A DNA stretch of 64,000 nucleotides, taken from an uncultured delta proteobacterium. Lineage in GTDB: Bacteria > Desulfobacterota > Binatia > Bin18. The notes under the pieces are model-generated. The model had not been told where the DNA came from. It did not search any database and was given only the letters and a program-made list of their open reading frames with translations. The translations under genes and the position numbers were made by a program. The stretch covers positions 1 through 64,000 of the forward strand of contig CAVTCR010000012.1 of assembly GCA_963733195.1 (NCBI GenBank), in the 5' to 3' direction. Below, one piece after another: positions 44,755 to 64,000 of the stretch (within the stretch, counting starts at the first letter, position 1; each line of letters begins with the position of its first letter).

Positions 44755-44770
44755 CGGCACATCTCTTGCT
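44755..44770 (+). promoter_or_regulatory. Sigma54 promoter (nitrate-type ABC operon)
   Basis: CGGCACATCTCTTGCT. Confidence 0.7.
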
Positions 44771-44840
44771 CTCTCAGAACTGATCGCCACCATTCATAAA
44801 CTAGGGGCTGGTTCACAAGAGAAGGAGGCTGTTGTTGCGC

Positions 44841-46109: not shown

Positions 46110-46173
46110 GAAAAAGTAAGTCAGGTAGTCAGCATTCAGTAGACAGTAGAAAAACTCGGAAAAGTGAAAAGGA

Positions 46174-46956: not shown

Positions 46957-46961
46957 GAGAC

Positions 46962-47816: not shown

Positions 47817-48703
47817 GCACCGTAATGATCGATATTTGGCAGCTCCGCAAAGTCTACGACACGCCAACCGGTCCTGCAGTAATTGTTGATGACTTCACCC
47901 TCAAAGCCAAGGAAGGTGAGTTCATCTGTGTTATTGGTCACTCTGGGTGTGGCAAATCGACGGTCCTGTCGATTGTGATGGGTCTCAACGAACCGACCTC
48001 TGGCAACGTCATCGTCGCTGGGAAAGAAGTGACTGGTCCTGGCCGAGATCGTGGTGTCGTTTTCCAATCTGCCGCCCTGCTTCCCTGGATGACGGTTCGA
48101 GATAATTTGTTGTTAGCCATCGACCAAGAAAGTACCCACGCAACAAAGAAAGAACGCGAGCAGCTTGCCGACCGGTATCTGACGCAAGTCGGGCTCGAAG
48201 GACAAGGGGAGCGGATGCCTGAAGAACTGTCTGCAGGGATGCGACAACGAGTAGGGATTGCGCGTGCCTTTGCCGTAGAACCGCGCGTGTTGTTGCTTGA
48301 TGAGCCGTTTAGTTTACTTGATGCCTTTACTCGCATGGAGTTGCAGGATCAACTCATTGACCTATGGGAGCGTACTCGCAAAACCGTGATGATGGTCACC
48401 CATGATGTTGATGAAGCGTTGCTGCTCGCTGATCGTATTGTGATGATGACAACTGGCCCTGCGGCTCGCATCGGTGGCATTCTTGAAGTGCCACTGCCAC
48501 GTCCACGCAAACGCGACCGTCTCCTCGAAGATCCAGCGTATTATCCCGCCCGCGATCAGCTCCTGACTTTTCTCGAGACTGGTGTTCCTCCAGCGCCACC
48601 TACGGACAGAAAGGATGCTAAGGATGAAGTCTCCCAGGTATCTCCTGCTCTCACTGGCCGCACTGTTCGCGACAGTCGTCTCTCCGCACCATGTCAAAGC
48701 TGA
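47813..48703 (+). CDS. Nitrate-type ABC ATPase (NrtD-like)
   Basis: GHSGCGKST, LSAGMRQR, VTHDVDEA, MMTTGPAARIG; C-terminal tail overlaps the next gene. Confidence 0.9.
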   Translation: MSTVMIDIWQLRKVYDTPTGPAVIVDDFTLKAKEGEFICVIGHSGCGKSTVLSIVMGLNEPTSGNVIVAGKEVTGPGRDRGVVFQSAALLPWMTVRDNLLLAIDQESTHATKKEREQLADRYLTQVGLEGQGERMPEELSAGMRQRVGIARAFAVEPRVLLLDEPFSLLDAFTRMELQDQLIDLWERTRKTVMMVTHDVDEALLLADRIVMMTTGPAARIGGILEVPLPRPRKRDRLLEDPAYYPARDQLLTFLETGVPPAPPTDRKDAKDEVSQVSPALTGRTVRDSRLSAPCQS

Positions 48704-50102
48704 AGTCGCACTGCCTTCAATCTCACCAAAACTCTCTGTCAGTGGCAGTCTCCGCATCCGAACCGAGGTGTGGAACTGGTTCGATCCTAGAGGATCTTTT
48801 GACGACGGGTATGTTTTTTCCGCTTTTCTCGGGCGCGGCGCCCTGCAATGGAAAGACGACAGCTTCGACGTGATGGTCGAAGCCCAGAGTTCCTCGCTGC
48901 TGGGCTTGCCGACAAGAGCAAGTGCACCGGCACCACAGGGACTCTTGGGTCTCGGCGCGGTGTACTACGCGCATAATCGGAGTGAGGATGATTCGCATTT
49001 TTTTCTTAAGCAAGGCTTCGTTCTCTTCAAAAATTTGGGCCTGGAAGGATTTACGCTGAAAGGCGGACGTTTCGAGTTTTCCGAAGGAAACGAAATCCTG
49101 ACTAAAGAACCGACGTTGGATTGGTTAAAAAATATCCGACTTTCACAACGTCTGATCGGTCCGTTTGGTTGGTCACATGTTGGTCGTTCGTTCGATGGTG
49201 GTGTTGCCAGTCTCACCAACGGACCTTTGAATCTCACAGTGATGGCGTCTCATCCAACACAAGGCGGGTTTGATTTGCAAGGTATGAAAGAGATGGACGA
49301 AATCGATTTGCTCTACACCTCGTTCAATATTACTCGCCCATCGTTTGCCGAGAATAGCGACGCCCGTTTCTTTTATATCTATTACAAAGACGACCGTGGG
49401 TTGTTGAAATCGGACAATCGGCCACCGGCAGTGCGCCAGGCAGATACCCGCCATATCGATGTACATACCGAAGGCGGCCACATCATTTCCGTGTTCCCAA
49501 CCAGTGCTGGACCAATTGATGTACTGGCGTGGGGAGCATTGCAACAAGGTGATTGGGGAACGCTCGACCACAATGCCTGGGCATGGGATCTGGAAGTTGG
49601 GTGGCAACCGAGCATGCTGCCATGGAAGCCGTGGCTGCGTATTGGTTATGGTCGCTCATCGGGAGATGACAGCCCAGGTGACGGAGACCACGGCACGTTC
49701 TTCCAACTTCTTCCCACTGCTCGCGTTTACTCTTTCTCCACGTTCTATAACTTGATGAATAATGAAGATGGCTTTGTGCAACTGATTCTTCGTCCTATCC
49801 CTGGTCTCGTTTCCCGCACGGATTTTCACAATATTCGCGTCACCGAGGCTCGTGACCTGTGGTACCAAGGCGCAGGTGCGACGCTCTCTGATCGCAACGT
49901 CGGGTTTGGTTTTCCTGGCCGTCCAGCTTTCGGCAAACGCAATTTATTTCAAGTGATCGAGACCTCACTCAGTTATGATCTGAACAAATTTATCAATCTC
50001 AATGTCTACTACGGTCACATCTTCGGTGGAGGTATTGTCCGTTCGATTTTCGCCGGCGATCAGGCTGATTTCGGCTATGTAGAAGTGCTGTTCAAGCTGT
50101 GA
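48624..50102 (+). CDS. Alginate-export (AlgE-like) family outer-membrane porin
   Basis: Signal peptide, SGSLRIRTEVWNWF, RLIGPFGWSHVGRSFDG, SGDDSPGDGDHGTFFQLLPT, terminal beta strand. Confidence 0.75.
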   Translation: MKSPRYLLLSLAALFATVVSPHHVKAEVALPSISPKLSVSGSLRIRTEVWNWFDPRGSFDDGYVFSAFLGRGALQWKDDSFDVMVEAQSSSLLGLPTRASAPAPQGLLGLGAVYYAHNRSEDDSHFFLKQGFVLFKNLGLEGFTLKGGRFEFSEGNEILTKEPTLDWLKNIRLSQRLIGPFGWSHVGRSFDGGVASLTNGPLNLTVMASHPTQGGFDLQGMKEMDEIDLLYTSFNITRPSFAENSDARFFYIYYKDDRGLLKSDNRPPAVRQADTRHIDVHTEGGHIISVFPTSAGPIDVLAWGALQQGDWGTLDHNAWAWDLEVGWQPSMLPWKPWLRIGYGRSSGDDSPGDGDHGTFFQLLPTARVYSFSTFYNLMNNEDGFVQLILRPIPGLVSRTDFHNIRVTEARDLWYQGAGATLSDRNVGFGFPGRPAFGKRNLFQVIETSLSYDLNKFINLNVYYGHIFGGGIVRSIFAGDQADFGYVEVLFKL

Positions 50103-50273: not shown

Positions 50274-50748
50274 ATGAATGGATCACGAGAAGTGATGAAA
50301 ATGCTCAATGAATTACTCCAAGGAGAACTGGCAGCTATCAACCAATATTTTTTGCATGCTTCCCTATGTAAGAAATGGGGGTATCTGCGTCTTTACAAGA
50401 AGATTTATGATGAATCCATCGAGGAGATGAAGCATGCCGAACAGTTGATCGATCGCATTCTCTTCCTTGACGGGCGCACCAACCGTGAAAGATTCGTTAA
50501 AAATTACGATTGGGAAAAACGTAAAAGAGATTCTTGAGAATGATTTAGCATTAGAGAAAGAGGGATTACCTGAATTGCGAAAAGCGGTTGCGCTGTGCCT
50601 TGAGCACGCTGACACCGGAACACGAGAACTTATCGAACATATTCTCGTCAGTGCGGAAGAGCATATCCAGTGGCTTGAGTCGCAAACATTTTTGATACAG
50701 CAAGTCGGCTACGAGAATTACTGCGCTCAGCACATCCAACCGGCTTGA
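50274..50748 (+). CDS. bfr: Bacterioferritin, frameshift near 50470
   Basis: ELAAINQYFLH, ESIEEMKHA, RILFLDG, DLALE, EEHIQWLE, GYENY. Confidence 0.92.
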
Positions 50749-50905: not shown

Positions 50906-50921
50906 TGGCATAGTTCCTGCT
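50906..50921 (+). promoter_or_regulatory. Sigma54 promoter (nirB operon)
   Basis: TGGCATAGTTCCTGCT. Confidence 0.75.
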
Positions 50922-51057
50922 CGATAGGGCTCAGAGCGTACAATGCGCTGATGCCCAAAGGGAGGAAATCCCCTCAATACTCCTCCCATTGTTCAGGAGA
51001 CGGTGTTCCCTCCACCGTCTCCTGCCCTCCTGAAAGGAGGAAAAGGAGCCGTAGGTA

Positions 51058-53568
51058 ATGTCCACTGTCCACCGCGAACGACTGGTTGTGGTTGGGAACG
51101 GCATGGCGGGCGCACGGGTTGTCGAAGAAATCCTGCAACGTGACGCGCAACGTTTCAGCATTACCATGTTCGGCGCGGAACCCTATGGCAATTATAATCG
51201 TATTCTCCTCTCCAACGTGCTGAATGGCTCTCAGAAAATGGAGGAGATCTTCCTTAATCCTCTCGCTTGGTACGAACAGAATTGCGTCACATTACATGCT
51301 GGTGTCAAAGCGACGCTGATCAATCGCTCAAAACGGGTTGTCGCCGGCAATCCTTTACGACGTGAGGCATCTCCGTATGGACTCGATGGCTGCGACCCAC
51401 ACGGGATGGCGATCGAAGAACCATACGATAAAGTCATTATTGCAACCGGCTCGCGTCCGTTCATCCCACCACTCGAAGGGATGGACAAACCAGGAACATT
51501 CCTCTTTCGCACGATCGACGACTGCGAGCAGATCGCGGAATACGCAAAAGGTTGTCGCAAAGCTGTGGTGGTAGGTGGTGGTCTGTTGGGTCTCGAAGCA
51601 GCCCGAGGCCTCCTCACCCACGGGGTCGAGGTAACGGTGATTGAAGCGCTGCCTCAGCTCATGGCCGCGCAACTCGACCCCGAATCGGGTGAGATGTTGA
51701 AGACCACGATCGAGCAGATGGGCATTCGCGTTCTTCTGGCTAAATTCTCTTCGCAGATTCTTGGCGCAGAGCGGGTCACTGGCATACAATTCAACGACGG
51801 CACAACGCTCGACACCGACATGGTCGTAGTCAGTGCGGGCATTCGCCCGATCACGGAAATTGCCAAGGATTCAGGTCTGACCGTCGAGCGCGGTATTGTC
51901 TGTGATGATCAACTTCGTACTAGCGACCCTGACATCTTTGCCGTTGGTGAATGTGTCCAGCATCGTGGAGTGATCTACGGTTTGGTCGATCCCATTTGGC
52001 AACAGGCAAAAACTATCGCCGATGTGTTAACAGGCACCGATCCACGGGCAGCATATCAGGGGTCAAAGCTCGCGACTAAACTGAAAGTGATGGGCGTTGA
52101 ACTCGCGTCGATGGGAGATGCCAAAGCTGTGCAGCCTGACGACGAGGTCGTGATCTACCGCGAACCCTCGCGTGGCGTCTACAAAAAAATGGTCATCCGC
52201 GACAACAAACTGACCAACGCAATTCTCTTAGGAGAAACCGATACGGCTGGCGTCCTAACCCAGATGTTCACGCTCGAAGCCGCAGTACCAGAACGACGTG
52301 CAGACCTCTTGTTTGGCACGTCGAGCGGTGCGCCAATCCTGTCGGTGTTCGATTTGCCGGATCAAGCGCAGATTTGTAACTGCAACGGCGTCGCCAAAGG
52401 CAAGATCAAAGACGCGATCATGATCGGCAAGTGTAAATCAGTCTCGAAAGTCGGCGTGCATACCAAGGCAGGCACCGGCTGTGGGAGTTGCAAAAGTCTG
52501 ATTCTGCAATTGTTGGAGGTCTACGCGGGCGAAGTACAAGACGATCCCAGCGAGCACTACTATGTACCGGGAGTTCCACTCACTAAGCCAGAATTGATTA
52601 CTGCTATCAAAGCGCAAAGCCTCAAGAGTGTGAGTGCGGTGTTTCGTGCACTTGCTGGTGGCAAAGAAGATCCGGGTAGTAAACCTGGACTTGCCTCGTT
52701 ACTCAAATCACTCTGGCCGCATGACTACGAAGACGAGCGTGATGCTCGCTTCATCAACGACCGCGTACACGCAAACATTCAACGCGACGCCACGTTCAGC
52801 GTCGTTCCGCGTATCTACGGTGGAGTCACCTCAGCTGCGGAACTCAAGCGCATCGCCGAAGTCGCGGAAAAATACCACGTCCCGATGGTCAAGTTTACCG
52901 GTGGTCAACGTATCGACCTGCTAGGCATCAAAAAAGAAGACTTGCCAGCAGTATGGAAGGATCTCGGTATACCAAGCGGCCACGCCTACACCAAAGCGTT
53001 TCGTACCTGCAAAAGTTGCGTTGGTACTGATTTTTGTCGCTATGGTCTAGGAGATTCTATCGGTCTCTCGCAGAAAATCGAGCGCCGTTTTCAGGGCATC
53101 GAGTCGCCACACAAGATGAAGCTCGCAACCACCGGCTGTCCGCGTAATTGCTCAGAAGCGTACGTCAAAGATCTCGGCGCGGTCGCGATCGAGGGCGGAC
53201 AATGGGAAATTTATGTTGGTGGTGCAGCCGGCAGTTCGGTACGGAAAGGCGATCTGCTGTGCACGGTCAATACGCATGATGAAGTCTTGAAGTTTATGGG
53301 GCGCTTCATGCAGTACTACCGCGAGAACGGCAAGTACCTGGAACGTAGTTACGGCTTTGTTGAACGTCTTGGAATCGAACGTTTACGTGACGTGCTTGTT
53401 GAAGATACGGAAGGAATCTGCGCACGACTCGATGCGGAGATTGAGGCCGCAGTCGCTGCCTATAAAGACCCGTGGCTGGAAGCAATCGAGCCTGTTCACG
53501 TCAGCCAGTTTGCTGATCCTGTTCCCGTCGCTGCAACAACCAGCCAGTCACAAGAGACGCTTTCATGA
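51058..53568 (+). CDS. nirB: NAD(P)H assimilatory nitrite reductase large subunit (NirB/NasD)
   Basis: GNGMAG, YNRILLS, GGGLLGLE, BFD-type CNCNGV...GTGCGSC, NDRVHANIQ, siroheme/4Fe4S ligands CKSCVGTDFC and GCPRNC. Confidence 0.95.
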   Translation: MSTVHRERLVVVGNGMAGARVVEEILQRDAQRFSITMFGAEPYGNYNRILLSNVLNGSQKMEEIFLNPLAWYEQNCVTLHAGVKATLINRSKRVVAGNPLRREASPYGLDGCDPHGMAIEEPYDKVIIATGSRPFIPPLEGMDKPGTFLFRTIDDCEQIAEYAKGCRKAVVVGGGLLGLEAARGLLTHGVEVTVIEALPQLMAAQLDPESGEMLKTTIEQMGIRVLLAKFSSQILGAERVTGIQFNDGTTLDTDMVVVSAGIRPITEIAKDSGLTVERGIVCDDQLRTSDPDIFAVGECVQHRGVIYGLVDPIWQQAKTIADVLTGTDPRAAYQGSKLATKLKVMGVELASMGDAKAVQPDDEVVIYREPSRGVYKKMVIRDNKLTNAILLGETDTAGVLTQMFTLEAAVPERRADLLFGTSSGAPILSVFDLPDQAQICNCNGVAKGKIKDAIMIGKCKSVSKVGVHTKAGTGCGSCKSLILQLLEVYAGEVQDDPSEHYYVPGVPLTKPELITAIKAQSLKSVSAVFRALAGGKEDPGSKPGLASLLKSLWPHDYEDERDARFINDRVHANIQRDATFSVVPRIYGGVTSAAELKRIAEVAEKYHVPMVKFTGGQRIDLLGIKKEDLPAVWKDLGIPSGHAYTKAFRTCKSCVGTDFCRYGLGDSIGLSQKIERRFQGIESPHKMKLATTGCPRNCSEAYVKDLGAVAIEGGQWEIYVGGAAGSSVRKGDLLCTVNTHDEVLKFMGRFMQYYRENGKYLERSYGFVERLGIERLRDVLVEDTEGICARLDAEIEAAVAAYKDPWLEAIEPVHVSQFADPVPVAATTSQSQETLS

Positions 53569-53933
53569 GTCTGCATACCCTTCAGAGAAGTGGAGGGCAA
53601 GCCATGGCCCTACAGCAACCTTCTCCAAAACGATTAGTAAATCTCGGTTCAGTAGACTTCATTCCGCTTGGCGAAGGGCGCGCATATAAGGTCGGAGACG
53701 TAGGCATCGCAGTCTTTCGTCAACGTGACGGAAAACTGTTCGCGACTCAAAGTCAATGCCCGCATCGTCAAGGGCCTTTGGCTGACGGCATTGTTGGTGC
53801 AGGAACAGTGATTTGCCCGTTTCACGCCTGGAAGTTTGACCTCGCGACCGGTCGTTGTGCTGGGGAAGAAGTCACGTTGCTCACGTTTCCAGTCCACGAA
53901 CTCGAAGGTCGCCTCATCATTGAAATCGAGTAA
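53565..53933 (+). CDS. nirD: Nitrite reductase small subunit (Rieske-type NirD)
   Basis: IPLGEGR, IAVFR, CPHRQGPLADG, CPFHAWKFDL. Confidence 0.88.
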   Translation: MSLHTLQRSGGQAMALQQPSPKRLVNLGSVDFIPLGEGRAYKVGDVGIAVFRQRDGKLFATQSQCPHRQGPLADGIVGAGTVICPFHAWKFDLATGRCAGEEVTLLTFPVHELEGRLIIEIE

Positions 53934-53942
53934 CTCGCAACT

Positions 53943-55172
53943 ATGAATCTACAAAAATCCGCGACTGCTATCGTGTCAATATTGGCCCTCGACCGCACCG
54001 CCGCCACTGCCGCACTAGTGGCCGGTGGACTCGTCACCCTTTTCATCATTATCGGCTCGCAAGGACTCAGACATTTCGACTGGATGCTACTTCACTACGC
54101 ATTAGCAACCGTGTTTGCCATCGCCGCCAGCACCTACCGTATCGTGCTGTGGATACGGCGTCCGCCCACGCTCCGTTATTGGCAGCAAAACTGGCGGCTG
54201 TTTCGCAGCGGTGGAATTATACAGAACAGTATCTATCTCGGTCAGTTGCTGTTCAACAATGTTGGCACCCAGAAATTCATCGCGCAACGTAGCCGCTATC
54301 GTTGGTTTACGCACCTGTGCCTGTCCTGGGGTGGCATGCTGGCTTTTGCCATTACCTTCCCCTTGGTGTTCGGTTGGGTGCATTTCGAGACCCCGCCCGA
54401 CGATCTGGAAAAGTATCATGTCGTGTTCCTAGGTATGCACGTACAAGAGTTCTCGATCCACTCGCTCATCGCGTTTGTCACTTTCAATGCGCTCAACATC
54501 TCCGCCATTATCATGCTGATTGGCGTTTCGATGGCACTCTACCGCCGCCTAACTGATGGCGGAGCCATTGCGTTGCAACGCTTCAGCAATGACATCCTGC
54601 CACTCCTCCTGCTTTTCGTCGTCGCCGCCAGTGGATTAGGACTCACGATTAGTGCGCATTTCATGAATGGACGAGGGTTCCCTTTTATCGCTGCCACCCA
54701 CGCCGCATCAGTCATCATTCTTCTGCTCTCGTTACCGTTCGGTAAGTTGTTTCACATTTTTCAGCGTCCTGCCCATATCGGCGTTGGCTTCTACAAGCGT
54801 GCGGGACAAATGGGGCAGCAGGCTCACTGCGGACGTTGTGGCGAGGCGTTCGCCTCACAAATACATGTCGATGACCTCAAGCAAGTGTTCGCTGAACTCG
54901 GCATGGATTCTCACTTAGACGGTCCGGTAACGCATTATCAAGAGATTTGTCCTCCCTGTCGCCGTCGATTATTAGCGCTCAACCAAGGCAAGACGATGTC
55001 AGGGCTGAAGAATCAATGGACAGGGATAGAGGCGTTGGTGAACCACGAGTTAGAAGCTGAATGGGAGAATGGGCGAACGGGTGATTCGGCGCAAGAAATT
55101 TCGTCTCCTTCCTTCGCCCACTCGCTCAGTCGCCCAGTCGCCCAGTCTCGGGTGGATATTCCAGCAACATAA
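53943..55172 (+). CDS. NarI/DsrM-like polytopic membrane protein with a C-terminal CxxC...CxxC domain
   Basis: RPPT, RWFTHLCLSWG, TM His (THAASV), PFGKLFHIFQRP, CGRCG...CPPCRRR. Confidence 0.7.
   Translation: MNLQKSATAIVSILALDRTAATAALVAGGLVTLFIIIGSQGLRHFDWMLLHYALATVFAIAASTYRIVLWIRRPPTLRYWQQNWRLFRSGGIIQNSIYLGQLLFNNVGTQKFIAQRSRYRWFTHLCLSWGGMLAFAITFPLVFGWVHFETPPDDLEKYHVVFLGMHVQEFSIHSLIAFVTFNALNISAIIMLIGVSMALYRRLTDGGAIALQRFSNDILPLLLLFVVAASGLGLTISAHFMNGRGFPFIAATHAASVIILLLSLPFGKLFHIFQRPAHIGVGFYKRAGQMGQQAHCGRCGEAFASQIHVDDLKQVFAELGMDSHLDGPVTHYQEICPPCRRRLLALNQGKTMSGLKNQWTGIEALVNHELEAEWENGRTGDSAQEISSPSFAHSLSRPVAQSRVDIPAT
55059..55149. repeat. Inverted octamer tandem-repeat cassette
   Basis: GAATGGGA GAATGGGC GAACGGGT GATTCGGC ... 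TCGCCCAC TCGCTCAG TCGCCCAG TCGCCCAG. Confidence 0.75.
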
Positions 55173-55188
55173 GAGGGAAATACAGACG

Positions 55189-57413
55189 ATGGCACTGCTC
55201 CCATTCCCAGAAGAAACGTCATCGACCGTTACGGTCCGCATTTAAACTACGAACCTGCTGGCGGTTGGCAAACCAGTGGAGCGCCAGATCGTTTAGTCAA
55301 AACACATTGTTGCTTTTGCGGCGTGCAGTGTGGCATCCAACTCAAAGTACGTGATGAAAAAGTTGTTGGCTTCGAGCCGTGGACGGATTTTCCGGTGAAC
55401 CAGGGTAAGCTCTGCCCTAAGGGAGTGAAGCGGTATTTACAGAACAATCACCCAGACCGCATTCTTGCGCCCTTGATTCGGACCAACGATGGCTTCCGCG
55501 AGGCGGATTGGAACGAAGCGCTGACGCAGGTGACCGAGAACATTCGCCGTATTCAGCAGACCTACGGTAAAGATGCGTTTGCGCTCCTCGGTGGTGCCTC
55601 ACTTACGAATGAGAAAGCCTATCTGATGGGCAAATTTGCTCGGGTGGCACTGGGCACAGCCAATATCGATTACAACGGTCGCCTGTGTATGGTCTCGGCT
55701 GGGGCAGGCAACAAGATGGCATTCGGCATCGACCGTGCCGCTAATCCCTGGAGCGATATTCCCCTCGCCAAATGCATTATTGTCACTGGCAGTAACATTG
55801 GTGAGTGCTTTCCGATTCTTACGGATTATTTATGGCGGGCACGTGACAACGGTGCCAAACTCATTGTTATTGATCCACGCATAACACCGATTGCGCGTAC
55901 GGCGGATCTGTTTTTGCCAGTGCGACCTGGTCGGGATAGCGCCCTCATGAACGGCATCTTGCATGTAATGATCGAGCGCGACTGGATCGACCATGAATTT
56001 ATCGCTGCACACACGCTCGATTTCGAGAAGGTCCGTGAAGCTGTCGCAACCTACACACCCCAATACACCGCCGAGATTACTGGTGTACCAGCGGTAAATA
56101 TTATAAAAGCCGCGGAACTGTGGGGTGAAGCGCCGACCTCGATGTTGTTACACGCACGCGGTATCGAGCACCACACCAAAGGGGTCGAGAACGTTCTCTC
56201 TTGTATCAACTTGGTGTTGGCAACCGGGCGTATTGGTCGTCCTGGTTGTGGATACGGCACCATCACGGGTCAAGGCAATGGTCAAGGTGGACGCGAGCAC
56301 GGGCAACGTTGCAATCAGCTTCCCGGCGGACGCGACATCGAAAACCCACAGCATCGACAAGAGATCGCCTCGTTTTGGGGGATTCAGGAGCAGGAGCTTC
56401 CACTAAAGGGACTCACCGCAGTCGAGCTATTTGACGCGATCAACGAAGGGAAGATCAAAGGGTTGCTCTCGATCTCTTTTAACCCAATGGTGTCGTTACC
56501 CAACGCTGCCTTAACCCGGTCAGCCTTAGAGAAGCTCGAGTTCTACGCTGCGATTGAACCATTCATGTCGGAGACTGCACGACATGCCAATGTCGTCCTC
56601 GCTGGCTCACTTCAGGAAGAAGATGAAGGAACTGTCACTAATGGTGAAGGACGCGTAATCCGCTTACGACAGTCGGTCAAACCGCCAGCCAATGCTCGGG
56701 TAGATTGGCAGATTATTGTTGAGATCGCGCAACGCTTAGGGAAAGGCGAATTCTTTCCGTATACCCAAGCTGAAGATATGTTCCGTGAACTGAGTCATGC
56801 TTCGGCTGGTGCGCCAATTGACTATGCAGGTATTACCTACAAGCGTATCGAAGAGAACAAAGGCGTCTTTTGGCCTTGTCCAACACCGGAACATCCCGGT
56901 ACTCCGCGTTTATTTGAAGGTGGGAAATTCGCACATCCAGATGGCAAGGCACGCTTCCATGCCATTCAGTACCGTCCACCGGCGGAGGATATCGACACCA
57001 ACTATCCACTGTTCATGACCAGCGGACGTGTGGTGTCACAGTACTTGAGTGGTACACAAACGCGACGGATTGGTCCGCTCGTAGACCAGTATCCCAATCC
57101 GCAGGTCGAGATGCATCCCCAGCTCGCGCAGAAACTCGGAGTGAAATCCGGCGACCAAGTCCGGGTTGAAAGCCGTCGCGGTGAATTAACGTTACCCGCA
57201 CTGGTAGTGAAGACAATTCGCCCAGATACGATCTTTATTCCTTATCACTGGCCGGGCAAGCAATCGGCAAATCTTGTCACTAATCGAGTCCTGGATCCCG
57301 TTTCTAAGATTCCTGAGTTTAAAGTGTGTGCAGTCCGAGTGAGCAAGATCGGTACAATACCATCCTCTCCTCTCAATGGCAGCGGTCACCACTTGGAAAG
57401 AAATAACCTATGA
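55189..57413 (+). CDS. Mo-bisPGD oxidoreductase, assimilatory nitrate reductase (Nas-type) catalytic subunit; frameshift near the N-terminus
   Basis: [12 protein letters not shown]...LCPKG FS0 motif, NGRLCM (Cys Mo ligand), [25 protein letters not shown]; no Tat signal or C-terminal BFD domain. Confidence 0.85.
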
Positions 57414-57997
57414 GCATGGAATTCTTTGTTGACCCATCACGCTGTATTGGCTGTCAAGCGTGTTTCCATGCTTGCGCGGAGTGTGAAAGTCATCGTGGCA
57501 TTTCGATGATCCACCTCGACTTTGTTGACCGCTCCAGTTCTCCACAAACCACACCAACTGTATGCATGCACTGTGAAGATCCAACGTGCGCACGCGTATG
57601 TCCTGCTGATGCGATCAAACAAACCGCAGAAGGTATCGTGCAATCAGCGCTCAAGCCACGCTGCATCGGTTGCTCGAACTGTGTGTTGTCCTGCCCCTTT
57701 GGGGTGCCGCGCTACATGCCAGCGCAAGATCAGATGATGAAGTGCGACATGTGTTACGATCGCACTTCAGTAGGATTAACCCCTATGTGCGCCACAGTCT
57801 GTCCAAGTGGTGCATTATACTACGGCCCTCGCGAGACGGTTGTGCAGACGCGGCGCGAAACATCTACTAACACCTTCGTGTTTGGCCGTCGGGTCGTGAA
57901 GACTAAAGTGAGCATGATGGTCGGACAAGAAGCCGAAGCATTGGATATCGATGTTGCCAGCTTTATGGAGGGGTCTGGGCTAGGAACTGGGAGTTAG
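57410..57997 (+). CDS. 4Fe-4S dicluster electron-transfer subunit (DmsB/NrfC-like)
   Basis: CIGCQAC...[32 protein letters not shown]...P.C..VCP. Confidence 0.9.
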
Positions 57998-58105
57998 GAT
58001 TTGGGATTTAGCAAGGAAAAAGCCAATGGATGCAAACTATCACGCTATGTCACCTTCCGTCTCACACAGCACAGAAAACCAATCCCCAATCCCCAATCCC
58101 CAATC
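57977..58105. repeat. Inverted heptamer tandem-repeat cassette (CCCCAAT, STRR-like)
   Basis: GGGCTAG GAACTGG GAGTTAG GATTTGG GATTTAG ... CCAATCC CCAATCC CCAATCC CCAATC. Confidence 0.75.
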
Positions 58106-58574
58106 TGCTGCCTTCCCCATCCCGTGGGAAGAAGAGCAGACCGTGACACGTCGGACTTTTCTGTCGTTTGTGTTGCTGCTCTCAACCACCCTTCTCGCAA
58201 GTACTGGTCTCCTTGGTCTCGTCGATTGGTTGCGCCGCAGGTCAGTTTCTCAGCTTGCGCCTGCGCTGATCGCATCGGTCCAGGATGTTCCGGTCGGCGG
58301 TGTAAAGCTGTTTTCCTATCCGACTGCTCATGATCCTTGTCTGCTCATTCGTCTCTCACAAGACCAGTTTGTCGCCTACAGCCAGAAGTGCACCCATCTA
58401 TCCTGCCCGGTCACCTACAAAGCACAAGAGAAAGAATTTTTCTGTCCGTGTCACGCTGGGCGTTTTGCGTTAGAGGATGGGCGCGTGCTTGGAGGTCCAC
58501 CGCAACGGCCACTCCCGAGCATTCTCCTCAACATCTCTGGTAACGAGATTTGGGCGACTGGAGTACGAGTATGA
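58026..58574 (+). CDS. Membrane-anchored Rieske [2Fe-2S] protein
   Basis: TRRTFL plus TM, CTHLSC, CPCHAGRF, GPPQRPL. Confidence 0.9.
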   Translation: MDANYHAMSPSVSHSTENQSPIPNPQSAAFPIPWEEEQTVTRRTFLSFVLLLSTTLLASTGLLGLVDWLRRRSVSQLAPALIASVQDVPVGGVKLFSYPTAHDPCLLIRLSQDQFVAYSQKCTHLSCPVTYKAQEKEFFCPCHAGRFALEDGRVLGGPPQRPLPSILLNISGNEIWATGVRV

Positions 58575-58810
58575 ACACTCTTCCAACGACGGCACACCAG
58601 CAACGGAACACTATTTTTTCCTTGGTCGCATTCTCGATGATCGTTTTGTTCAGTCTCCAGCTCTGGCTCTTTATCGAAGTCCTTCACGGGTCGTTAGGTA
58701 GTGAAGGAGGATATTCTTTACTGGCAACACTAGTTTCGGTCCTCTGTGTCGCTGGCAATTGGCAATTGTGGCATCTTCTTCATAGTAGAATTGACAACTT
58801 CAGCCGATAA
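58571..58810 (+). CDS. Small two-TM membrane protein (QLWL motif)
   Basis: ATGA overlap with the Rieske gene; IVLFSLQLWLF. Confidence 0.65.
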   Translation: MNTLPTTAHQQRNTIFSLVAFSMIVLFSLQLWLFIEVLHGSLGSEGGYSLLATLVSVLCVAGNWQLWHLLHSRIDNFSR

Positions 58811-59119: not shown

Positions 59120-59312
59120 CATGCAGAATGATTGTGATTCGGAGGAAGTTACGGCTGATGCACGGATCCCACTTCGTGAGGCACAAAAGAAACAGCCCGA
59201 GCAGCTGTGGTGGACAGTACTAGATGATCCGTCGTTTCGTCGGCTGCTTCGAGATGGACATCGTGCCGACGCAACTGCATACCTTCTTACCCAGCTAGAG
59301 AAGGAAGAATGA
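59120..59312 (+). CDS. Small protein resembling the C-terminal helical part of SirC/CysG
   Basis: WWTVLDDPSFRRLLRDGHRADATAYLL; ATGA overlap with cobA. Confidence 0.4.
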
Positions 59313-60145
59313 CATATTCACCGGTGTACTTGGTCGGGGCTGGGCCAGGCGATCCAGGGCTCATTACCGTTCGTGGACTGAACGCCGTACGACAAGCGAC
59401 AGTCGTTATATATGATCGTTTGGTTCACCCCTCTCTCGTAGAAGAAGCACCACCCACTGCACAGCGCATCTATGTCGGGAAAGAGTCTGGAATTCACTGT
59501 GTCCCACAAGCGCAGATCAACCAGCTCTTAGTGAAATACGCAGGGCAAGGAGAGCGGGTAGTCCGCCTCAAAGGCGGCGATCCGTTTGTCTTTGGCCGTG
59601 GTGGAGAAGAGGCTGAGGCTTTGGTTGCTATGGGAATCCCTTTCGAGATTATCCCTGGTGTCAGTTCTGCAGTCGCTGTCCCTGCGTATGCAGGCATTCC
59701 AGTCACCCATCGCAAAGTTGCCTCGTCGTTCGCTGTGATCACCGGCCACGAGGAAGGGAGCAAGGAACATACTGCGATTGATTGGCAGCGCCTCGCAACT
59801 TCCGTAGATACTCTTGTCATTCTTATGGGAACAAAAGGGCTGGGACGGATTACGGCGCAGTTGATACAGCATGGTCGCCCCCCAGAGACACCAGTAGCAC
59901 TCATCCGTTGGGGAACAATGAGTGAACAGTTCACCGTAATTGGTACACTCGTAGATATTGTCGATAAAGCTGCAGCAGTTGGCCTAGAGCCACCAGCAGT
60001 CACAGTAGTCGGAGATGTCGTCAATCTCGCCGAGCGGTTGCGTGGTTTTTCCCTCAGGCGCTGCCTTCTTCCTTATCTGTCATCCCTGATGACACGGGGT
60101 TCCTCAATTCGACCGTCAAGGGTTGGCATCTGTGGTTTGATTTAG
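59309..60145 (+). CDS. cobA: Uroporphyrinogen-III C-methyltransferase (siroheme supply)
   Basis: VYLVGAGPGDPGLIT, YDRLV, RLKGGDPFVFGRGGEE, AGIPVTHR. Confidence 0.95.
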   Translation: MTYSPVYLVGAGPGDPGLITVRGLNAVRQATVVIYDRLVHPSLVEEAPPTAQRIYVGKESGIHCVPQAQINQLLVKYAGQGERVVRLKGGDPFVFGRGGEEAEALVAMGIPFEIIPGVSSAVAVPAYAGIPVTHRKVASSFAVITGHEEGSKEHTAIDWQRLATSVDTLVILMGTKGLGRITAQLIQHGRPPETPVALIRWGTMSEQFTVIGTLVDIVDKAAAVGLEPPAVTVVGDVVNLAERLRGFSLRRCLLPYLSSLMTRGSSIRPSRVGICGLI

Positions 60146-60194: not shown

Positions 60195-60896
60195 TCAACT
60201 GCGCAATACCACCGGAGAGTTGATGACGGACACCTGCTGAAATCCAGCCTGCTCAATTATCACAGCAAAATCCTTCGGGTTCGGAAGATAGGAAACTGAA
60301 CGCGGCAAGTAGGCATACGCTTGACTATCTGAAAGCAGGGCACCGAGGAACGGTACAACTCGATTAAAATAAAACTGATGCCCCCAACGTAAGACCGGGT
60401 TCGCTGGGGTATCGACTTCTAGCAGAGCCAATCTCCCGCCCGGCTTCAATATGCGTGCAGCTTCGGCCAGCACCGTTGGAATCGATACAAAGTTACGCAA
60501 GGCAAAACCAGAAAGTACAACGGTTACCGAAGTGTCTGGTAGCGGAATACAACCCGCATCGGCTTGTACGAACATTGCGTTGATTCCTCGTCGTCGTGCG
60601 CCGGCAAGCATATTCCCGGCAAAATCAACTCCTACAACTCGCGCTCCCGAGTGCGCTGCAAGTTCACTAAGGTCGCCAGTACCACACGCAAGGTCAACGA
60701 CAACATCCTGTGCAGTCACTGCTGCCGCCTGAATCGTCTTGCGTCGCCATGATTGATCAAGTTGGAAGGAAAAGAGGCGGTTAAGAGTATCGTACCGTGG
60801 GGCGATGCGGTCGAACATGGTTCGTACATATACGGCCTTTTCACTTTGTTCAGGAAGTATCTTCTCTAATTGCGGATTAACCATTTCACTCATCAT
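60195..60896 (-). CDS. Demethylmenaquinone/ubiquinone methyltransferase (MenG/UbiE)
   Basis: MFDRIAPRYDTLNR, DLACGTGD, GFALRN, AYAYLPRSV. Confidence 0.9.
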   Translation of the reverse strand: MMSEMVNPQLEKILPEQSEKAVYVRTMFDRIAPRYDTLNRLFSFQLDQSWRRKTIQAAAVTAQDVVVDLACGTGDLSELAAHSGARVVGVDFAGNMLAGARRRGINAMFVQADAGCIPLPDTSVTVVLSGFALRNFVSIPTVLAEAARILKPGGRLALLEVDTPANPVLRWGHQFYFNRVVPFLGALLSDSQAYAYLPRSVSYLPNPKDFAVIIEQAGFQQVSVINSPVVLRS

Positions 60897-60936: not shown

Positions 60937-61764
60937 CTAGACGATCTTTTCGCTCGGCGTGGTGATCTTGCGCATCGGCTCGTAACGCGCGGACGGTACC
61001 CGCAGGGGGTAGAGGGTATCGCCGCCATCCCAGTGCGGATCTTCCAAGCTATCGAACACCTCTCGCAAGCGCTGGCCCCAGGTGCTGCGGATCATCTGGA
61101 AATACGGGTTGCCGTCATCGATGCAGACGACCTGGTTGCTGCGCAAGGCGCCCTCGCGGTAGACGAGCAGGTCAAGCGGCAGACCCACGCCCAGGTTGGA
61201 TTTCAGCGTGGAATCCATCGACACCAAGGCGCACTTGGCGGCCGTGTCCAGCGGCGTGGTCGGCACGATGAGACGATCGAGCACGGGCTTGCCATATTTG
61301 GACTCGCCAAGCTGGAAGTAACAGGTTTCGCGCGTGGCCTCGATGAAATTGCCGGCTGAATACACGAGGAACATCCGCATAGCCTCGCCCTTGATCTGGC
61401 CGCCGAGAATCAGCGACGCGTTGAATTCAATGCCGGCGGTCTGGAACGCCGCGCCATCGTCGTGGTGTACCCGGCGCACGGTGGTGCCGAGCACGCGCGC
61501 GGCATCGAACATGTTGGTCGCGTTCCAGATGGTCAGCGGTTCCTCGTCAGGGCCGCGAGCGAGTCTCTCCACTTGCAGCAACTCGCGTATGGACTGCGCC
61601 ACGGACAAGTTGCCGGCCGACAGCATAACCATAAAGCGGTCATCTGGCTTCTCGTAGATCATCATTTTCCGGAACGTGCTAATCTGGTCCATCCCCGCGT
61701 TGGTGCGCGAGTCGGACAGGAAGACCAGCCCAGCATTGAGTCGGATGCCAATGCAATAGGTCAT
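60937..61764 (-). CDS. Proteasome-type protease (Anbu)
   Basis: MTYCIG (N-terminal Thr), SDSRTNAG, AGNL, YSAGNFI, GESKYGKP, STLKSNLGVG. Confidence 0.92.
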   Translation of the reverse strand: MTYCIGIRLNAGLVFLSDSRTNAGMDQISTFRKMMIYEKPDDRFMVMLSAGNLSVAQSIRELLQVERLARGPDEEPLTIWNATNMFDAARVLGTTVRRVHHDDGAAFQTAGIEFNASLILGGQIKGEAMRMFLVYSAGNFIEATRETCYFQLGESKYGKPVLDRLIVPTTPLDTAAKCALVSMDSTLKSNLGVGLPLDLLVYREGALRSNQVVCIDDGNPYFQMIRSTWGQRLREVFDSLEDPHWDGGDTLYPLRVPSARYEPMRKITTPSEKIV

Positions 61765-61817
61765 ATCGAATCTTCAGATCTTGTTTCCCATTTGACAACC
61801 TGTCGGTATGGGCAATT

Positions 61818-61856
61818 GAGACTCCCAGACTCCAGGACTCTCAGACTCCTAGACTA
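61818..61856. repeat. Octamer tandem repeats
   Basis: GAGACTCC CAGACTCC AGGACTCT CAGACTCC TAGACT, overlapping the alpha-E stop. Confidence 0.7.
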
Positions 61857-62874
61857 TTTTTTCCTGCCGTTGCACACTGCCTTCGCTGCTACGTTGACTC
61901 TGAGACTTTACGGTAACAGCTCCACCAATCGGTTGCAAAGCAAAGAAAGTGTTAAAGATGCTCTCTCCAACCAGATTCAGTTTGGTTTGAAATGCATCGA
62001 GGAATTCATGGAGCCCTGAACCAATGATATCGCCTACTTGCGCATACGCTAACTCGGCTCGGAGTTGGCCCAGGTGCTGCTCGGCAGGATTACAGAAACT
62101 CCCAATCGGCGTGCTCGATACCGCATGGAGCGATTCGTCAGCCTTGATCAAGCAGTAGTGGAGCGAGCGAGGAAACTCACGCTCAAGCAGCAGAAATTCA
62201 ACAATGCGATCGGGACTCAGATCCTGGTAACGCTGGCGATACATTTCCAATGCGCTGGTAGAACGCAATACTGCTGCCCACTGAATATCATCGAAAGGAG
62301 TACCAACATCGGCAACCGACGGGAGTAAAAGAAAATACTTAACATCAACCATACGTGACGTTTTGTCAGCACGTTCAAGCAACCGACCCATGCGACAAAA
62401 ATGCCATCCTTCACTATGTGACATGGTTGCATTCGTCAGTCCTTCAAACAGATGACTGGCCATACGGATATCACGAAAGAACTCATATGGGGCTTCGCGA
62501 ACCCGAGTTGCCGCCGCTAAGTCATGGACCATCAGATAAAAGACGTTGACCTGCTCCCACATTTCTGAAGAAATGATTTCCCGCACCGATCGGGCATTTT
62601 CGCGTGCGACTCGGAGACAGGACAGAATTGAGTTAGGGTTCTCCTTGTCGAATGTCAAAAATTCCACGACATTCTCTCGCGTTGCCTCCTTGTACTGTTT
62701 GACAAAAGGGCCGTCATCACCAGTCGTAATGACCAGCGGTTTCCATTGTTCGCTCGCGCCCGCGGGTAAATCTAACATTAAGTGTAGATTGACATCGATG
62801 AAGCGCGCCACATTTTCTGCACGCTCGATATAGCGGCTCAACCAATAGAGGCTATCAGCAACACGCGAAAGCAT
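61849..62874 (-). CDS. Alpha-E domain protein (DUF403)
   Basis: MLSRVADSLYWLSRYIERAEN, ARENARSVRE, LERADKT, FPRS. Confidence 0.93.
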   Translation of the reverse strand: MLSRVADSLYWLSRYIERAENVARFIDVNLHLMLDLPAGASEQWKPLVITTGDDGPFVKQYKEATRENVVEFLTFDKENPNSILSCLRVARENARSVREIISSEMWEQVNVFYLMVHDLAAATRVREAPYEFFRDIRMASHLFEGLTNATMSHSEGWHFCRMGRLLERADKTSRMVDVKYFLLLPSVADVGTPFDDIQWAAVLRSTSALEMYRQRYQDLSPDRIVEFLLLEREFPRSLHYCLIKADESLHAVSSTPIGSFCNPAEQHLGQLRAELAYAQVGDIIGSGLHEFLDAFQTKLNLVGESIFNTFFALQPIGGAVTVKSQSQRSSEGSVQRQEKIV

Positions 62875-62883
62875 ACATCTCTC

Positions 62884-64000
62884 TTATCCGTACAATACCC
62901 AGGTATCTTTACTTCCTCCCCCTTGAGAGGAGTTCACAACTAGAGAGCCTTTCTTGAGTGCAACACGAGTCAGACCGCCGGGAAGTACATAAATGTCAGA
63001 GCCATACAAAATGTACGGTCGCAAATCGACATGCCGCCCTTCAAAATGATCATCAACGATCACCGGCACCCGTGATAAGGATAAGGTCGGTTGCGCGATG
63101 TAGTTGCGTGGATTGGCCCGAATGCGTTCTGCAAACTGTTCACGCTCGGCAGCAGTCGCATGTGGACCGACCAACATTCCGTATCCACCTGATTCGTTGG
63201 CAGCTTTGACGACGAGTTGGTCAAGGTGATCAAGGACATAGGCACGTTCTTTCTCATCCCAGCAGACATAGGTGGGGACATTGGGAATGATACTGTCTTC
63301 ACCGAGATAGTATTTGATGATCTTCGGGACATAGGCATACATGACTTTGTCATCGACAATGCCTGTGCCCGGTGCATTTGCCAACGCGATTCGTCCGGCT
63401 TTGTAGACATCCATCAACCCAGGAACGCCTAAGGACGAATCAGGCCGGAAGGTCAGCGGATCAAGAAAATCATCGTCGATACGCCGATAGAGGACATCAA
63501 CCTGCTTGAGCCCTCTCGTCGTGCGCATTTGGACCAGACCGTCAGCAACAACGAGGTCTCGTCCTTCGACCAGTTCCACTCCCATCTGTTGGGCCAAAAA
63601 CGAGTGCTCGAAGTAGGCCGAGTTGTATGTCCCAGGAGTAAGACACCGCCACGGTCGGGGATTGGATATACTCAGCCGCAAGCGCTTGGAGCATAGCTAA
63701 GAGATGACCAGGATAATCATCAACTGGCCGGACACGGGACTCTCCGAAGACTTGCGGAAACGTCCGCTTGAGAATCTGGCGACTTTCCAAGACATAAGAA
63801 ACTCCAGACGGACAGCGCAGGTTGTCTTCCAGCACATACATTTGTCCGTTACGGTCACGAACCAGGTCCGTACCAGTGATATGACACCACACGCCGCGAG
63901 GCGGGTTGAGCCCAACGCACGCCTGACGAAACGATCGCGCTGAATAGACGATCTCTTCAGGGATGATCTTATCTTTGAGCAGTTTCTGCTCATGATACAT
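62884..64000 (-). CDS. Circularly permuted type 2 ATP-grasp protein (partial, frameshift near 63650)
   Basis: [63 protein letters not shown]. Confidence 0.93.

Follow-up and report, generated by a model that had tools for sequence, protein, structure and literature searches.

A widespread five-gene module that probably encodes a quinol-linked nitrate reductase with a predicted NarI-type cytochrome b and a Rieske protein

RESULTS

Five packed genes follow nirBD in a nitrogen-assimilation cluster

The 64,000-nt stretch of DNA analyzed here (hereafter the window, in which all positions are counted) comes from an uncultured delta proteobacterium (contig CAVTCR010000012.1 of assembly GCA_963733195.1), whose genome is an 87-contig metagenome-assembled genome (MAG) that is 93% complete. 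At 53943-58810, it carries five packed plus-strand genes encoding a cytochrome b-like membrane protein, a molybdenum (Mo) subunit, an iron-sulfur (FeS) subunit, a Rieske protein and a DUF6755 protein, which we call the module (Table 1). The membrane gene begins 9 nt after nirD and is separated from the Mo gene by 16 nt. A first-pass annotation made from the sequence alone had described the last junctions as overlapping: this holds for the Mo and FeS genes (4 nt, ATGA) and for the Rieske and DUF6755 genes (4 nt from ATG 58571, which overlaps the Rieske stop codon and is the likely start, or 25 nt from TTG 58550), but not for the FeS and Rieske genes, which lie 28 nt apart.

An open reading frame (ORF) listing combined with family scans places the module in a plus-strand nitrogen-assimilation cluster with the order nrtABCD, porin gene, nirBD, module and cobA, where nirBD encodes the NADH-dependent assimilatory nitrite reductase and the cobA product supplies sirohaem for NirB. 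Since the module forms a tight block with nirBD, with nrtABCD upstream and cobA downstream, it most likely serves nitrogen assimilation in this genome. No NarG or NapA scored above cut-off in the 93%-complete genome, which leaves the module as the sole nitrate reductase candidate detected in it. The first-pass annotation had also placed the module downstream of nirBD and of a sigma54 promoter: nirBD is clearly there, but the promoter is weak, as the -24/-12-like element ahead of nirB has two mismatches to the consensus and this consensus is not enriched in the window (6 matches with at most one mismatch, when 5.18 are expected). No convincing terminator was found 3' of position 58810.

Table 1. 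Features of the module and of its surroundings in the window
Feature	Position	Strand	Evidence and remarks
Gamma-like subunit, predicted NarI/EtfD-type cytochrome b	53943-55172	+	409 aa; six predicted transmembrane helices; C-terminal Cys4 domain
Alpha subunit, NasC-like putative nitrate reductase with molybdenum bis-pyranopterin guanine dinucleotide (Mo-bisPGD)	55189-57413	+	Frameshifted as assembled
Beta subunit, DmsB/FdnH-like four-cluster protein	57410-57997	+	Best matches: beta subunits of formate dehydrogenases (FDHs), DmsB
bc-type Rieske protein with twin-arginine signal-anchor	58026-58574	+	TRRTFLSF, transmembrane helix, then CTHLSC...CPCH
DUF6755 two-helix membrane protein	58550/58571-58810	+	Pfam PF20540, E 1.6e-8, above cut-off; SLQLWLF
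Sigma54-like element CGGCAC-N5-TTGC	44755-44769		5' of nrtA; pattern match, 1 mismatch
nrtABCD-type nitrate ABC transporter	44832-48703	+	Pfam NMT1_2, BPD_transp_1, ABC_tran
nrtA	44832-46109	+	
nrtB	46174-46956	+	
nrtC	within 46692-47816	+	
nrtD	47813-48703	+	
Outer-membrane porin, Alginate_exp family	48582-50102	+	Pfam PF13372, E 4.7e-26
Bacterioferritin-like gene	50274-50748	+	Two overlapping ORFs
Sigma54-like -24/-12 element TGGCAT-N5-CTGC	50907-50922	+	136 nt before nirB; read from sequence; weak
nirB	51058-53568	+	TIGR02374, 842.8 bits, above cut-off
nirD	53565-53933	+	Rieske_2 protein; nirD_assim_sml 68.5 bits, just under the 74.65 cut-off
cobA/cysG-type uroporphyrinogen-III methyltransferase	59309-60145	+	TIGR01469, 321.8 bits
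UbiE/COQ5-family quinone methyltransferase	60195-60896	-	Just downstream of cobA
Proteasome-beta-like (Anbu-type), Alpha-E domain and circularly permuted ATP-grasp proteins	60937-63681, on to 64000	-	Unrelated to the module

The membrane subunit is predicted to adopt the fold of NarI and EtfD

The first-pass annotation read the membrane protein as NarI/DsrM-like, with a His residue in a transmembrane helix, a PFGKLFH motif and a C-terminal CxxC..CxxC domain, and each of these elements was recovered: PFGKLFH occupies residues 265-271 and is followed by C296xxC299...C336xxC339 and by a low-complexity tail. Among sequence models, we detected weak matches to NCBIfam qmoC (E 5e-5) and to TcuB, and the best PDB sequence for a profile of 15 members was E. 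coli NarI (E 0.05), of which H187, H205 and PFSRLIH align with H253, H271 and PFGKLFH of the module protein. The final AlphaFold model, built from a 53-sequence alignment, reached a pLDDT of 87.1; an earlier model had a pLDDT of 64.6 and gave weak GPCR-like rows in Foldseek, and the deeper alignment was used instead. When the final model was compared with 48,161 chains by VIA-align, EtfD of M. smegmatis ranked first (9ojn_A, Z 12.2, root-mean-square deviation (rmsd) 3.5, 206 residues aligned), followed by NarI (1q16_C, Z 11.1, rmsd 5.5, 175 of 224 residues aligned) and by cytochrome b561 CybB (Z 10.2, rmsd 4.1, 136 residues aligned), the next rows being unrelated proteins with Z of 8.6 or less.

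Conservation points in the same direction, since H124, H253, H271 and the four cysteines C296, C299, C336 and C339 are invariant in all 53 relatives aligned. From the charge distribution, the N-terminus, H124, H271 and the Cys4 domain are placed on the cytoplasmic side and H147 and H253 toward the outside, so that the candidate haem ligands would be H124 and H271 for an inner haem and H253, possibly with H147, for an outer one; that the protein binds haem at all is what we infer from these residues. A conserved outer beta-hairpin (residues 146-171, with F148, Y158, G164 and F170 invariant) is absent from NarI and may seat the head of the Rieske protein. Altogether, the modeled structure and the three invariant His residues support a di-haem cytochrome b fold of the NarI/EtfD type rather than the transporter fold that would have spoken against the first-pass annotation.

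The Mo subunit resembles NasC and is frameshifted as assembled

The second gene encodes a protein with the Pfam domains Molybdopterin, Molydop_binding and Molybdop_Fe4S4 and with an N-terminal CxxCxxxC...C 4Fe-4S motif, in which Pfam found no Fer2_BFD domain. Its N-terminus ([10 protein letters not shown]...LCPKG) is not of the twin-arginine type, and the RR motif is absent from the Mo N-termini of the window and of 79 relatives. The first-pass description of a Nas-type Mo enzyme lacking both a twin-arginine translocation (Tat) signal and a BFD tail thus agrees with these features, but the gene is not intact, one base being missing at 55218/55219. The region of the putative Mo ligand, with its RLCM motif, reads NGRLCMVSA in 24/24 module Mo subunits (that of the window and those of 23 relatives). 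The same Cys-Met pair is present in proteobacterial NasA (SRLCMSS) and NapA (ARHCMAS), whereas the four FDHs that were aligned, including an FdsA-like paralog from the same genome, carry selenocysteine (Sec) or Cys followed by His instead. The best NCBIfam model was NasC (NF047855, 824.7-840.9 bits), ahead of Fdh-alpha (614 bits), while NarG (TIGR01580, 44.9 bits for a cut-off of 1084), NapA (262-277 bits for cut-offs of 904-930) and arsenite_ox_L (166 bits for a cut-off of 359) all stayed far under their thresholds.

A quick IQ-TREE analysis of 34 rows, which did not include B. subtilis NasC, cyanobacterial NarB, an Erwinia NasA reference (no ORF recovered) or three distant paralogs from the same genome (on contigs C57, C50 and C9), grouped the module Mo subunits into one clade with an Arthrobacter NasC-like protein as its long-branch sister, and proteobacterial NasA and NapA fell on the other side of the tree. 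Within the module clade, the Mo subunits of the window and of the nirB-linked loci L001, L003, L004, L005 and L012 formed one group (SH-aLRT 96), and that of L060, which is nirB-linked too, fell outside.

The longest ORF of the Mo gene starts at GTG 55323, which cannot be the true start because the first Cys of the CxxCxxxC motif lies before it. In 79/79 relatives, the N-terminus begins with MA(K/T)(L/P)P...(F/Y)GP...THCCFCG; in the window, [10 protein letters not shown]...THCCFCG is read one base back from the frame of MALLPFPEE (ATG 55189), and a DNA alignment with L001 and L002, the two closest relatives, shows that the window is one base short between 55218 and 55219. The sequence of the window itself was found in no public run (best share of sampled words 0.30); four runs yielded just short contigs of relatives, one of which (run X3, 204 nt; 6 differences in 161 aligned bases) stays in frame across the start of the Mo gene. 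The bacterioferritin-like gene, 4.7 kb upstream, is split by another frame change near 50465-50470 into ORFs of 87 aa and 93 aa. A second apparent indel within 5 kb, in a MAG of 87 contigs, favors indel errors of the assembly, and we therefore tentatively favor an assembly error over a real mutation for the base missing from the Mo gene. Since the cytochrome b and Mo genes lie in the same frame with one TAA between them, we also considered a stop-codon read-through that would fuse the two proteins; this was rejected because relatives start their Mo gene at the conserved MA(K/T)(L/P)P... sequence whatever its frame.

The FeS, Rieske and DUF6755 proteins keep their motifs across relatives

The FeS subunit was annotated as DmsB-like at first pass, in line with its best matches and with its sixteen Cys arranged in four groups, which together with C25 are invariant in 53/53 sequences. 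It has neither a signal peptide nor a transmembrane helix, and it is not NarH itself, as the narH model scored 36 bits on it for a cut-off of 524.

The Tat-like RRxFL anchor that had been noticed on the Rieske protein is a family trait: the RR motif (xRRxFxKF) and the boxes CTHL(S)C and CPCH are present in 58/58 sequences, the boxes hold the disulfide cysteines, and an N-terminal tail ahead of the RR motif is conserved. Because of this constancy and of its single transmembrane helix, the cluster domain of the protein should be exported by Tat. In the box CPCHxGxF, Gly and Phe are invariant, at positions that we take to be occupied by Ser and Tyr, as hydrogen-bond donors, in bc1 Rieske proteins. 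In bc1, this Ser and this Tyr raise the potential of the cluster. If the positions indeed correspond, the module Rieske cluster would be of lower potential and could act in line between quinol and the outer haem.

The last gene had been noted for a small membrane protein with a QLWL motif. This motif (SLQLWLF in the window) corresponds to a QxWL motif that is conserved in DUF6755 proteins, the family to which its Pfam match assigns it.

The module recurs in the same order in more than ten phyla and is linked to NarK

One genome per species was scanned, and at least 578 carriers of the cytochrome b were found (578/600 candidate stretches), of which the best 80 loci were kept; of 8000 candidates scored for the cytochrome b family itself, 3194 proteins matched at E<=0.001. 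Nearly all of the best 80 loci keep the order cytochrome b, Mo, FeS, Rieske, with genes that overlap or nearly abut. Presence counts rest on the 62 of these 80 loci with at least 4.8 kb past the start of the cytochrome b gene, where ORF calling found the Mo, FeS and Rieske genes behind the cytochrome b gene in 59 and a hidden Markov model built here found DUF6755 behind the Rieske gene as well in 56. The remaining loci either lack DUF6755 (L003, L004 and L005; 3/62), yielded the cytochrome b and Mo genes only (L006 and L009; 2/62) or have a Rieske gene that was not called as an ORF but is seen by tblastn (L038; 1/62). By record titles, carriers belong to more than ten phyla, among them Acidobacteriota, Verrucomicrobiota, Planctomycetota, Chloroflexota, Gemmatimonadota, Acidimicrobiia, Armatimonadota, Obscuribacterales, Dormibacterota and Deltaproteobacteria. 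As the same order recurs in 59/62 loci from many phyla, the arrangement is far beyond chance, and the accessory genes, whose co-occurrence the first-pass annotation proposed to survey, are conserved partners. At one locus (L025, 7687-13454), the order is permuted, with the FeS, Rieske and DUF6755 genes before the cytochrome b gene and the Mo gene 1.2 kb further on. The titles of L001, L004 and L008 (uncultured Enterobacteriaceae, Akkermansia muciniphila and Heliobacteriaceae) look implausible; their sequences group with Verrucomicrobiota, Acidobacteriota or Deltaproteobacteria, and these may be mislabelled bins.

A NarK-family gene is found in 58/80 loci, directly upstream and on the same strand in 45/80, and in 32 of those 45 loci NarK and the cytochrome b form a single ORF. 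The 760-aa protein of L037 (7690-9972), for instance, consists of NarK, cytochrome b and Cys4 parts and its stop codon overlaps the start of the Mo gene, as is often the case in the other fused forms of about 760 aa (L007, L010, L011, L014, L052 and 26 more). These fusions imply that the N-terminus of the cytochrome b is cytoplasmic, and hence its Cys4 domain too, which independently confirms the topology read from charges. Other neighbors vary by locus (NarK, hemerythrin, DUF2249/DUF1858, Rrf2, TehA-like proteins, cytochromes c), which is why the family-wide role may be assimilatory, respiratory or both. Considering the RLCM Cys-Met ligand, the NasC model as best NCBIfam match and the adjacent or fused NarK, nitrate is supported as the likely substrate.

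Source records label members of the cytochrome b family "MFS transporter, NNP family", "hypothetical protein" or "nitrate reductase gamma subunit". A cultured carrier, Deinococcus sp. NW-56, has the module on a 375-kb plasmid (NZ_CP026517), where the successive genes are annotated as "MFS transporter", "molybdopterin oxidoreductase family protein", "4Fe-4S dicluster domain-containing protein", "Rieske 2Fe-2S domain-containing protein" and "DUF6755 family protein" and are followed by a true NarK. Its cytochrome b (L101, 7762-8874), like P0003, P0014, P0027 and others, is called "MFS transporter" or "NNP family nitrate/nitrite transporter" in NCBI or JGI records and contains no MFS domain. This label on unfused forms is probably a carry-over from NarK fusions, and the membrane protein as a transporter is ruled out by its fold, by its motifs and by the separate N-terminal MFS domain of fused relatives. 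Two relatives listed with PF27541, P0119 and P0083, gave 0 families in our Pfam scan.

Complex models put the FeS subunit against the cytoplasmic side of the cytochrome b

Four of the five proteins were used in a complex prediction, with 53-row alignments for each: residues 1-350 of the cytochrome b, the Rieske protein, DUF6755 and, as the scored partner, the FeS subunit; the Mo subunit stood outside the model. Three runs gave ipSAE values of 0.81, 0.81 and 0.82 for the FeS subunit, versus 0.00 for the best of 3 controls, with agreement in at least 85% of contacts and a partner pLDDT of at least 80. In these models, the FeS subunit contacts cytoplasmic loops of the cytochrome b (70-79 with an invariant PPT, 112-116 and 206-211), the segment past its last helix (268-284, including K268 and the candidate ligand H271) and its Cys4 domain (298-350), using an interface that includes Cys groups 52-65 and 85-98. 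It also touches residues 30-37 of the Rieske N-terminal tail, ahead of the RR motif and on the cytoplasmic side. The predicted site of the FeS subunit is thus at the cytoplasmic surface of the cytochrome b, in the arrangement of NarH on NarI with an added Cys4 clamp. Combined with the NarK fusions, this predicted docking favors a Nar-like layout, with the Mo and FeS subunits inside, over an Aio-like one in which both would be exported with the Rieske protein.

DISCUSSION

A membrane-bound, quinol-linked nitrate reductase is the most probable reading

We propose that the five genes probably encode one membrane-bound, quinol-linked nitrate reductase with a NarGHI-like layout, a NasC-type subunit and a cytoplasmic active site. 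In this enzyme, a NarI-type di-haem cytochrome b would oxidize quinol at its outer face, and its two haems would carry the electrons across the membrane to the four-cluster FeS subunit, bound to the cytoplasmic loops and Cys4 domain of this cytochrome. The NasC-type Mo subunit would then receive them and reduce nitrate to nitrite in the cytoplasm. Nitrite would then pass directly to NirBD. Nitrate would be supplied by NrtABCD in this organism and, in most relatives, by a NarK encoded beside the cytochrome b or fused to it. The Rieske protein would be inserted by Tat, with its cluster domain outside and its N-terminal tail inside, touching the FeS subunit, and together with DUF6755 it would most likely be part of the outer-face site of quinol oxidation or electron entry. 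Gene content, conservation, motifs, predicted fold and predicted docking are the observations on which this scheme is built; from them we infer haem binding, the quinol donor, the energetics of electron flow as well as its direction, and the role given to the Rieske protein. The quinol-fed nitrate reductase with a cytochrome b/Rieske arm put forward at first pass is supported to this extent, with quinol as the presumed donor.

Several observations weigh against this proposal. Scores of the cytochrome b against NarI-family sequence models all lie under the curated cut-offs (Pfam Nitrate_red_gam, E 0.0039, 17.3 for 22.9; narI TIGR00351, 17.2 for 105.55), Foldseek returned EtfD and NarI both with a probability of 1.00 yet with weak E-values of 0.013-0.1, and Z scores of 11-12 can arise among helical bundles generally. 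The putative fourth haem ligand, H147, is present in 39/53 relatives and absent from 14/53. It is not obvious what an exported Rieske protein of the high-potential type would do in a Nar-like chain, and the operon encodes nothing that could re-oxidize it or take up a bifurcated electron. The ipSAE mark is reached by 58/80 solved complexes and 2/110 mismatched pairs, a calibration that is only rough for our complex model as we supplied our own alignments; moreover, NarH-NarI is already solved, so that passing this mark may partly reflect likeness to NarGHI. The Mo subunit falls short of the 1100 bits required of NasC equivalogs (NF047855), as does its Deinococcus ortholog (787.4 bits), and with the frameshift in its gene one cannot be sure that the enzyme is active in this organism. 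The word assimilatory fits this genome, but no more than 5/80 loci have nirB within 9 kb. Finally, no biochemical or genetic data were found for any member of the module.

The position of the Mo subunit in the tree also counts on this side. A grouping with FDHs would have spoken against the first-pass reading, and the outcome was divided: the FDH ligand motif is absent, but the quick 34-row tree puts the module clade as sister to cytoplasmic FDHs (SH-aLRT 99). In two published studies, Bacillus-type NasC stands apart from NasA/NarB, in the same region as the module clade, and both NasC and NasA/NarB are viewed as diversifications within the cytoplasmic FDHs (PMC7331816, PMC10100899).

Three alternative explanations

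The strongest competitor, which we nevertheless consider unlikely, is a periplasmic enzyme whose folded Mo and FeS subunits would hitch-hike on the Tat signal of the Rieske protein, in the manner of AioA and AioB, with the cytochrome b as a quinol dehydrogenase feeding the Rieske protein. A Tat-bearing Rieske protein beside leaderless Mo and FeS subunits does fit such export as it occurs in arsenite oxidase, and this is one more point against our proposal. NrtABCD-type transporters are said to import nitrite as well, which would suit an enzyme that makes nitrite outside. The invariance of the twin-arginine motif (58/58), the disulfide-bearing boxes of the bc/Aio type and a match of the Rieske protein to the NCBIfam model of the arsenite-oxidase small subunit (E 3e-13) also fit, as does the derivation of AioA from the Nas lineage in PMC7331816. 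However, our models put the FeS subunit against the cytoplasmic loops and the Cys4 domain, by the tail of the Rieske protein and opposite to the Rieske domain. The four Cys of this cytoplasmic domain are invariant and NirBD uses cytoplasmic nitrite, and a nitrate importer such as NarK, so frequent at these loci and so often fused, would be unexpected for a periplasmic enzyme.

More improbable still is a soluble NasC with the FeS subunit as its ferredoxin-like donor, next to which the cytochrome b, Rieske and DUF6755 proteins would have a function of their own, for instance in dealing with nitrite or NO or in regulating a transporter. NasC is indeed the best family match, hemerythrin, DUF2249/DUF1858 and Rrf2 genes lie near some relatives, and the linked nasC, FeS and Rieske genes of Bacillus bataviensis have been read as "an alternative assimilatory system" (PMC3475470). 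Against such a separation stand the four-gene order kept in 59/62 loci of many phyla with overlapping or near-abutting genes, the predicted interface between the FeS subunit and the cytochrome b (0.81 as opposed to 0.00 for controls) and the fact that the other neighbors vary by locus.

Another substrate (formate, chlorate, selenate or nitrite oxidation), with a secondary link to nitrate genes, would be in keeping with a Mo subunit that stays under the NasC cut-off, is sister to FDHs and has FDHs as its best PDB sequences (E 2e-153, ahead of NapA at E 5e-111, with no Nas structure among the PDB matches), but is very improbable considering its Cys-Met ligand, which is that of NasA and NapA and not Sec/Cys-His in 24/24 subunits, the NarK adjacent or fused elsewhere and the position of the module here between nirBD and cobA, with nrtABCD upstream.

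Comparison with known systems

The proposed enzyme resembles E. coli NarGHI (PDB 1Q16) in that its Mo subunit and four-cluster FeS subunit would both sit in the cytoplasm against what is predicted to be a NarI-fold di-haem cytochrome b, in the alignment of the helix with two candidate haem-ligand His residues and the PF(G/S)(K/R)L.H motif, and in its association with NarK. It differs from it in its NasC-like Mo subunit of about 730 aa with a Cys ligand, NarG having an Asp ligand, in the four Cys held by each of the four groups of the FeS subunit, in the extra N-terminal helix, outer beta-hairpin insert and Cys4 domain of the cytochrome b, in the addition of the Rieske and DUF6755 proteins and in the lack of a narJ gene in the operon.

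The Mo subunit is like NasC, NarB and NasA in its Cys-Met ligand and N-terminal 4Fe-4S motif and in having no signal peptide, and in this genome the module is likewise linked to nirBD, nitrate uptake and sirohaem synthesis. Known Nas enzymes are fed by NAD(P)H diaphorases, NirB/NasG or ferredoxin. In contrast, gene context and our model give the module conserved four-cluster, cytochrome b, Rieske and DUF6755 partners. A Persicobacter sp. plasmid (L110, 3929-7498) encodes a 1189-aa protein in which a NasA-like Mo part is joined to the N-terminal flavin/NAD half of NirB; this fusion is a case of the classical NAD(P)H feeding of Nas and contrasts with the module. Unlike Nap, the module has a Mo subunit without Tat signal and no cytochrome c gene in the operon.

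The pairing of a signal-less Mo subunit with a Tat-signal bc-type Rieske protein recalls AioAB, and AioA is placed as an offshoot of the Nas lineage in published trees (PMC7331816). The module Mo subunit, however, keeps its Cys ligand and four-Cys cluster motif, whereas AioA has no protein ligand and a 3Fe-4S cluster, and the module adds a four-cluster subunit and a cytochrome b with predicted docking on the cytoplasmic side. As in bc1/b6f complexes, a Tat-inserted Rieske protein with disulfide boxes is encoded with a putative di-haem cytochrome b, but the latter is of the NarI type with no PF00033 (Cytochrome_B) hit, and there is no cytochrome c1/f. EtfD, DsrMK, HdrDE, TcuB and QmoC are similar in that NarI-like anchors exchange electrons with a cytoplasmic iron-sulfur partner; the module differs in having no CCG-type domain, a 4-Cys module of about 55 residues and a molybdoenzyme as partner.

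No paper describing the full five-gene set was found, nor any on DUF6755, and PMC12342949 mentions no like system. The nearest description is that of Heylen and Keltjens (2012; PMC3475470), who linked a 729-aa nasC of B. bataviensis to iron-sulfur and Rieske proteins and suggested "an alternative, yet functional assimilatory" system, the text available to us making no mention of a membrane subunit. Wells et al. (2020; PMC7331816) describe the Nas/Aio/Nap clade as lacking four-cluster and membrane-anchor subunits. The architecture called atypical at first pass is so in a relative sense, its design being very widespread among genomes.

Implications for nitrate reduction

In environmental surveys, narG and napA serve as markers of nitrate respiration and nasA/narB as markers of assimilation. 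The module combines a NasC-like marker with a respiratory-style wiring and is often met in soil and freshwater phyla such as Acidobacteriota, Verrucomicrobiota, Planctomycetota and Chloroflexota. Should it be quinol-linked, the quinone pool would feed nitrate assimilation in its carriers, possibly with conservation of energy, and the many carriers that have no nitrite reductase gene next to it could possess an unrecognized route of nitrate respiration. The statement of PMC7331816 on the partners of the Nas/Aio/Nap clade would then have to be revised, and a NarI-type cytochrome b would be seen here for the first time together with a Rieske protein of the bc type.

More tentatively, the module could represent a further architectural class beside Nar, Nap and soluble Nas, in which a quinol-oxidizing and proton-motive entry module made of cytochrome b, Rieske and DUF6755 proteins, unrelated to bc1, would feed a cytoplasmic NasC-type enzyme; we regard this broader reading as possible, although doubtful at present. 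If it were true, much of the "assimilatory nasA/narB" of soils would be a membrane-bound and possibly respiratory enzyme, and the partnership with a Rieske protein would mark the stock from which arsenite oxidase arose. On the practical side, the cytochrome b is mislabelled "MFS transporter" in NCBI and JGI records.

Other observations in the genome

The UbiE/COQ5-family gene downstream of cobA (Table 1) is consistent with an organism that uses quinones and does not indicate their kind. Beyond it, the minus-strand genes that run to the end of the window are unrelated to the module. Elsewhere in the same genome, Mo subunits resembling FDHs are encoded with an in-frame TGA on contigs C52 (51573-53553) and C72 (4885-5880), and these codons are candidates for selenocysteine or for more frameshifts.

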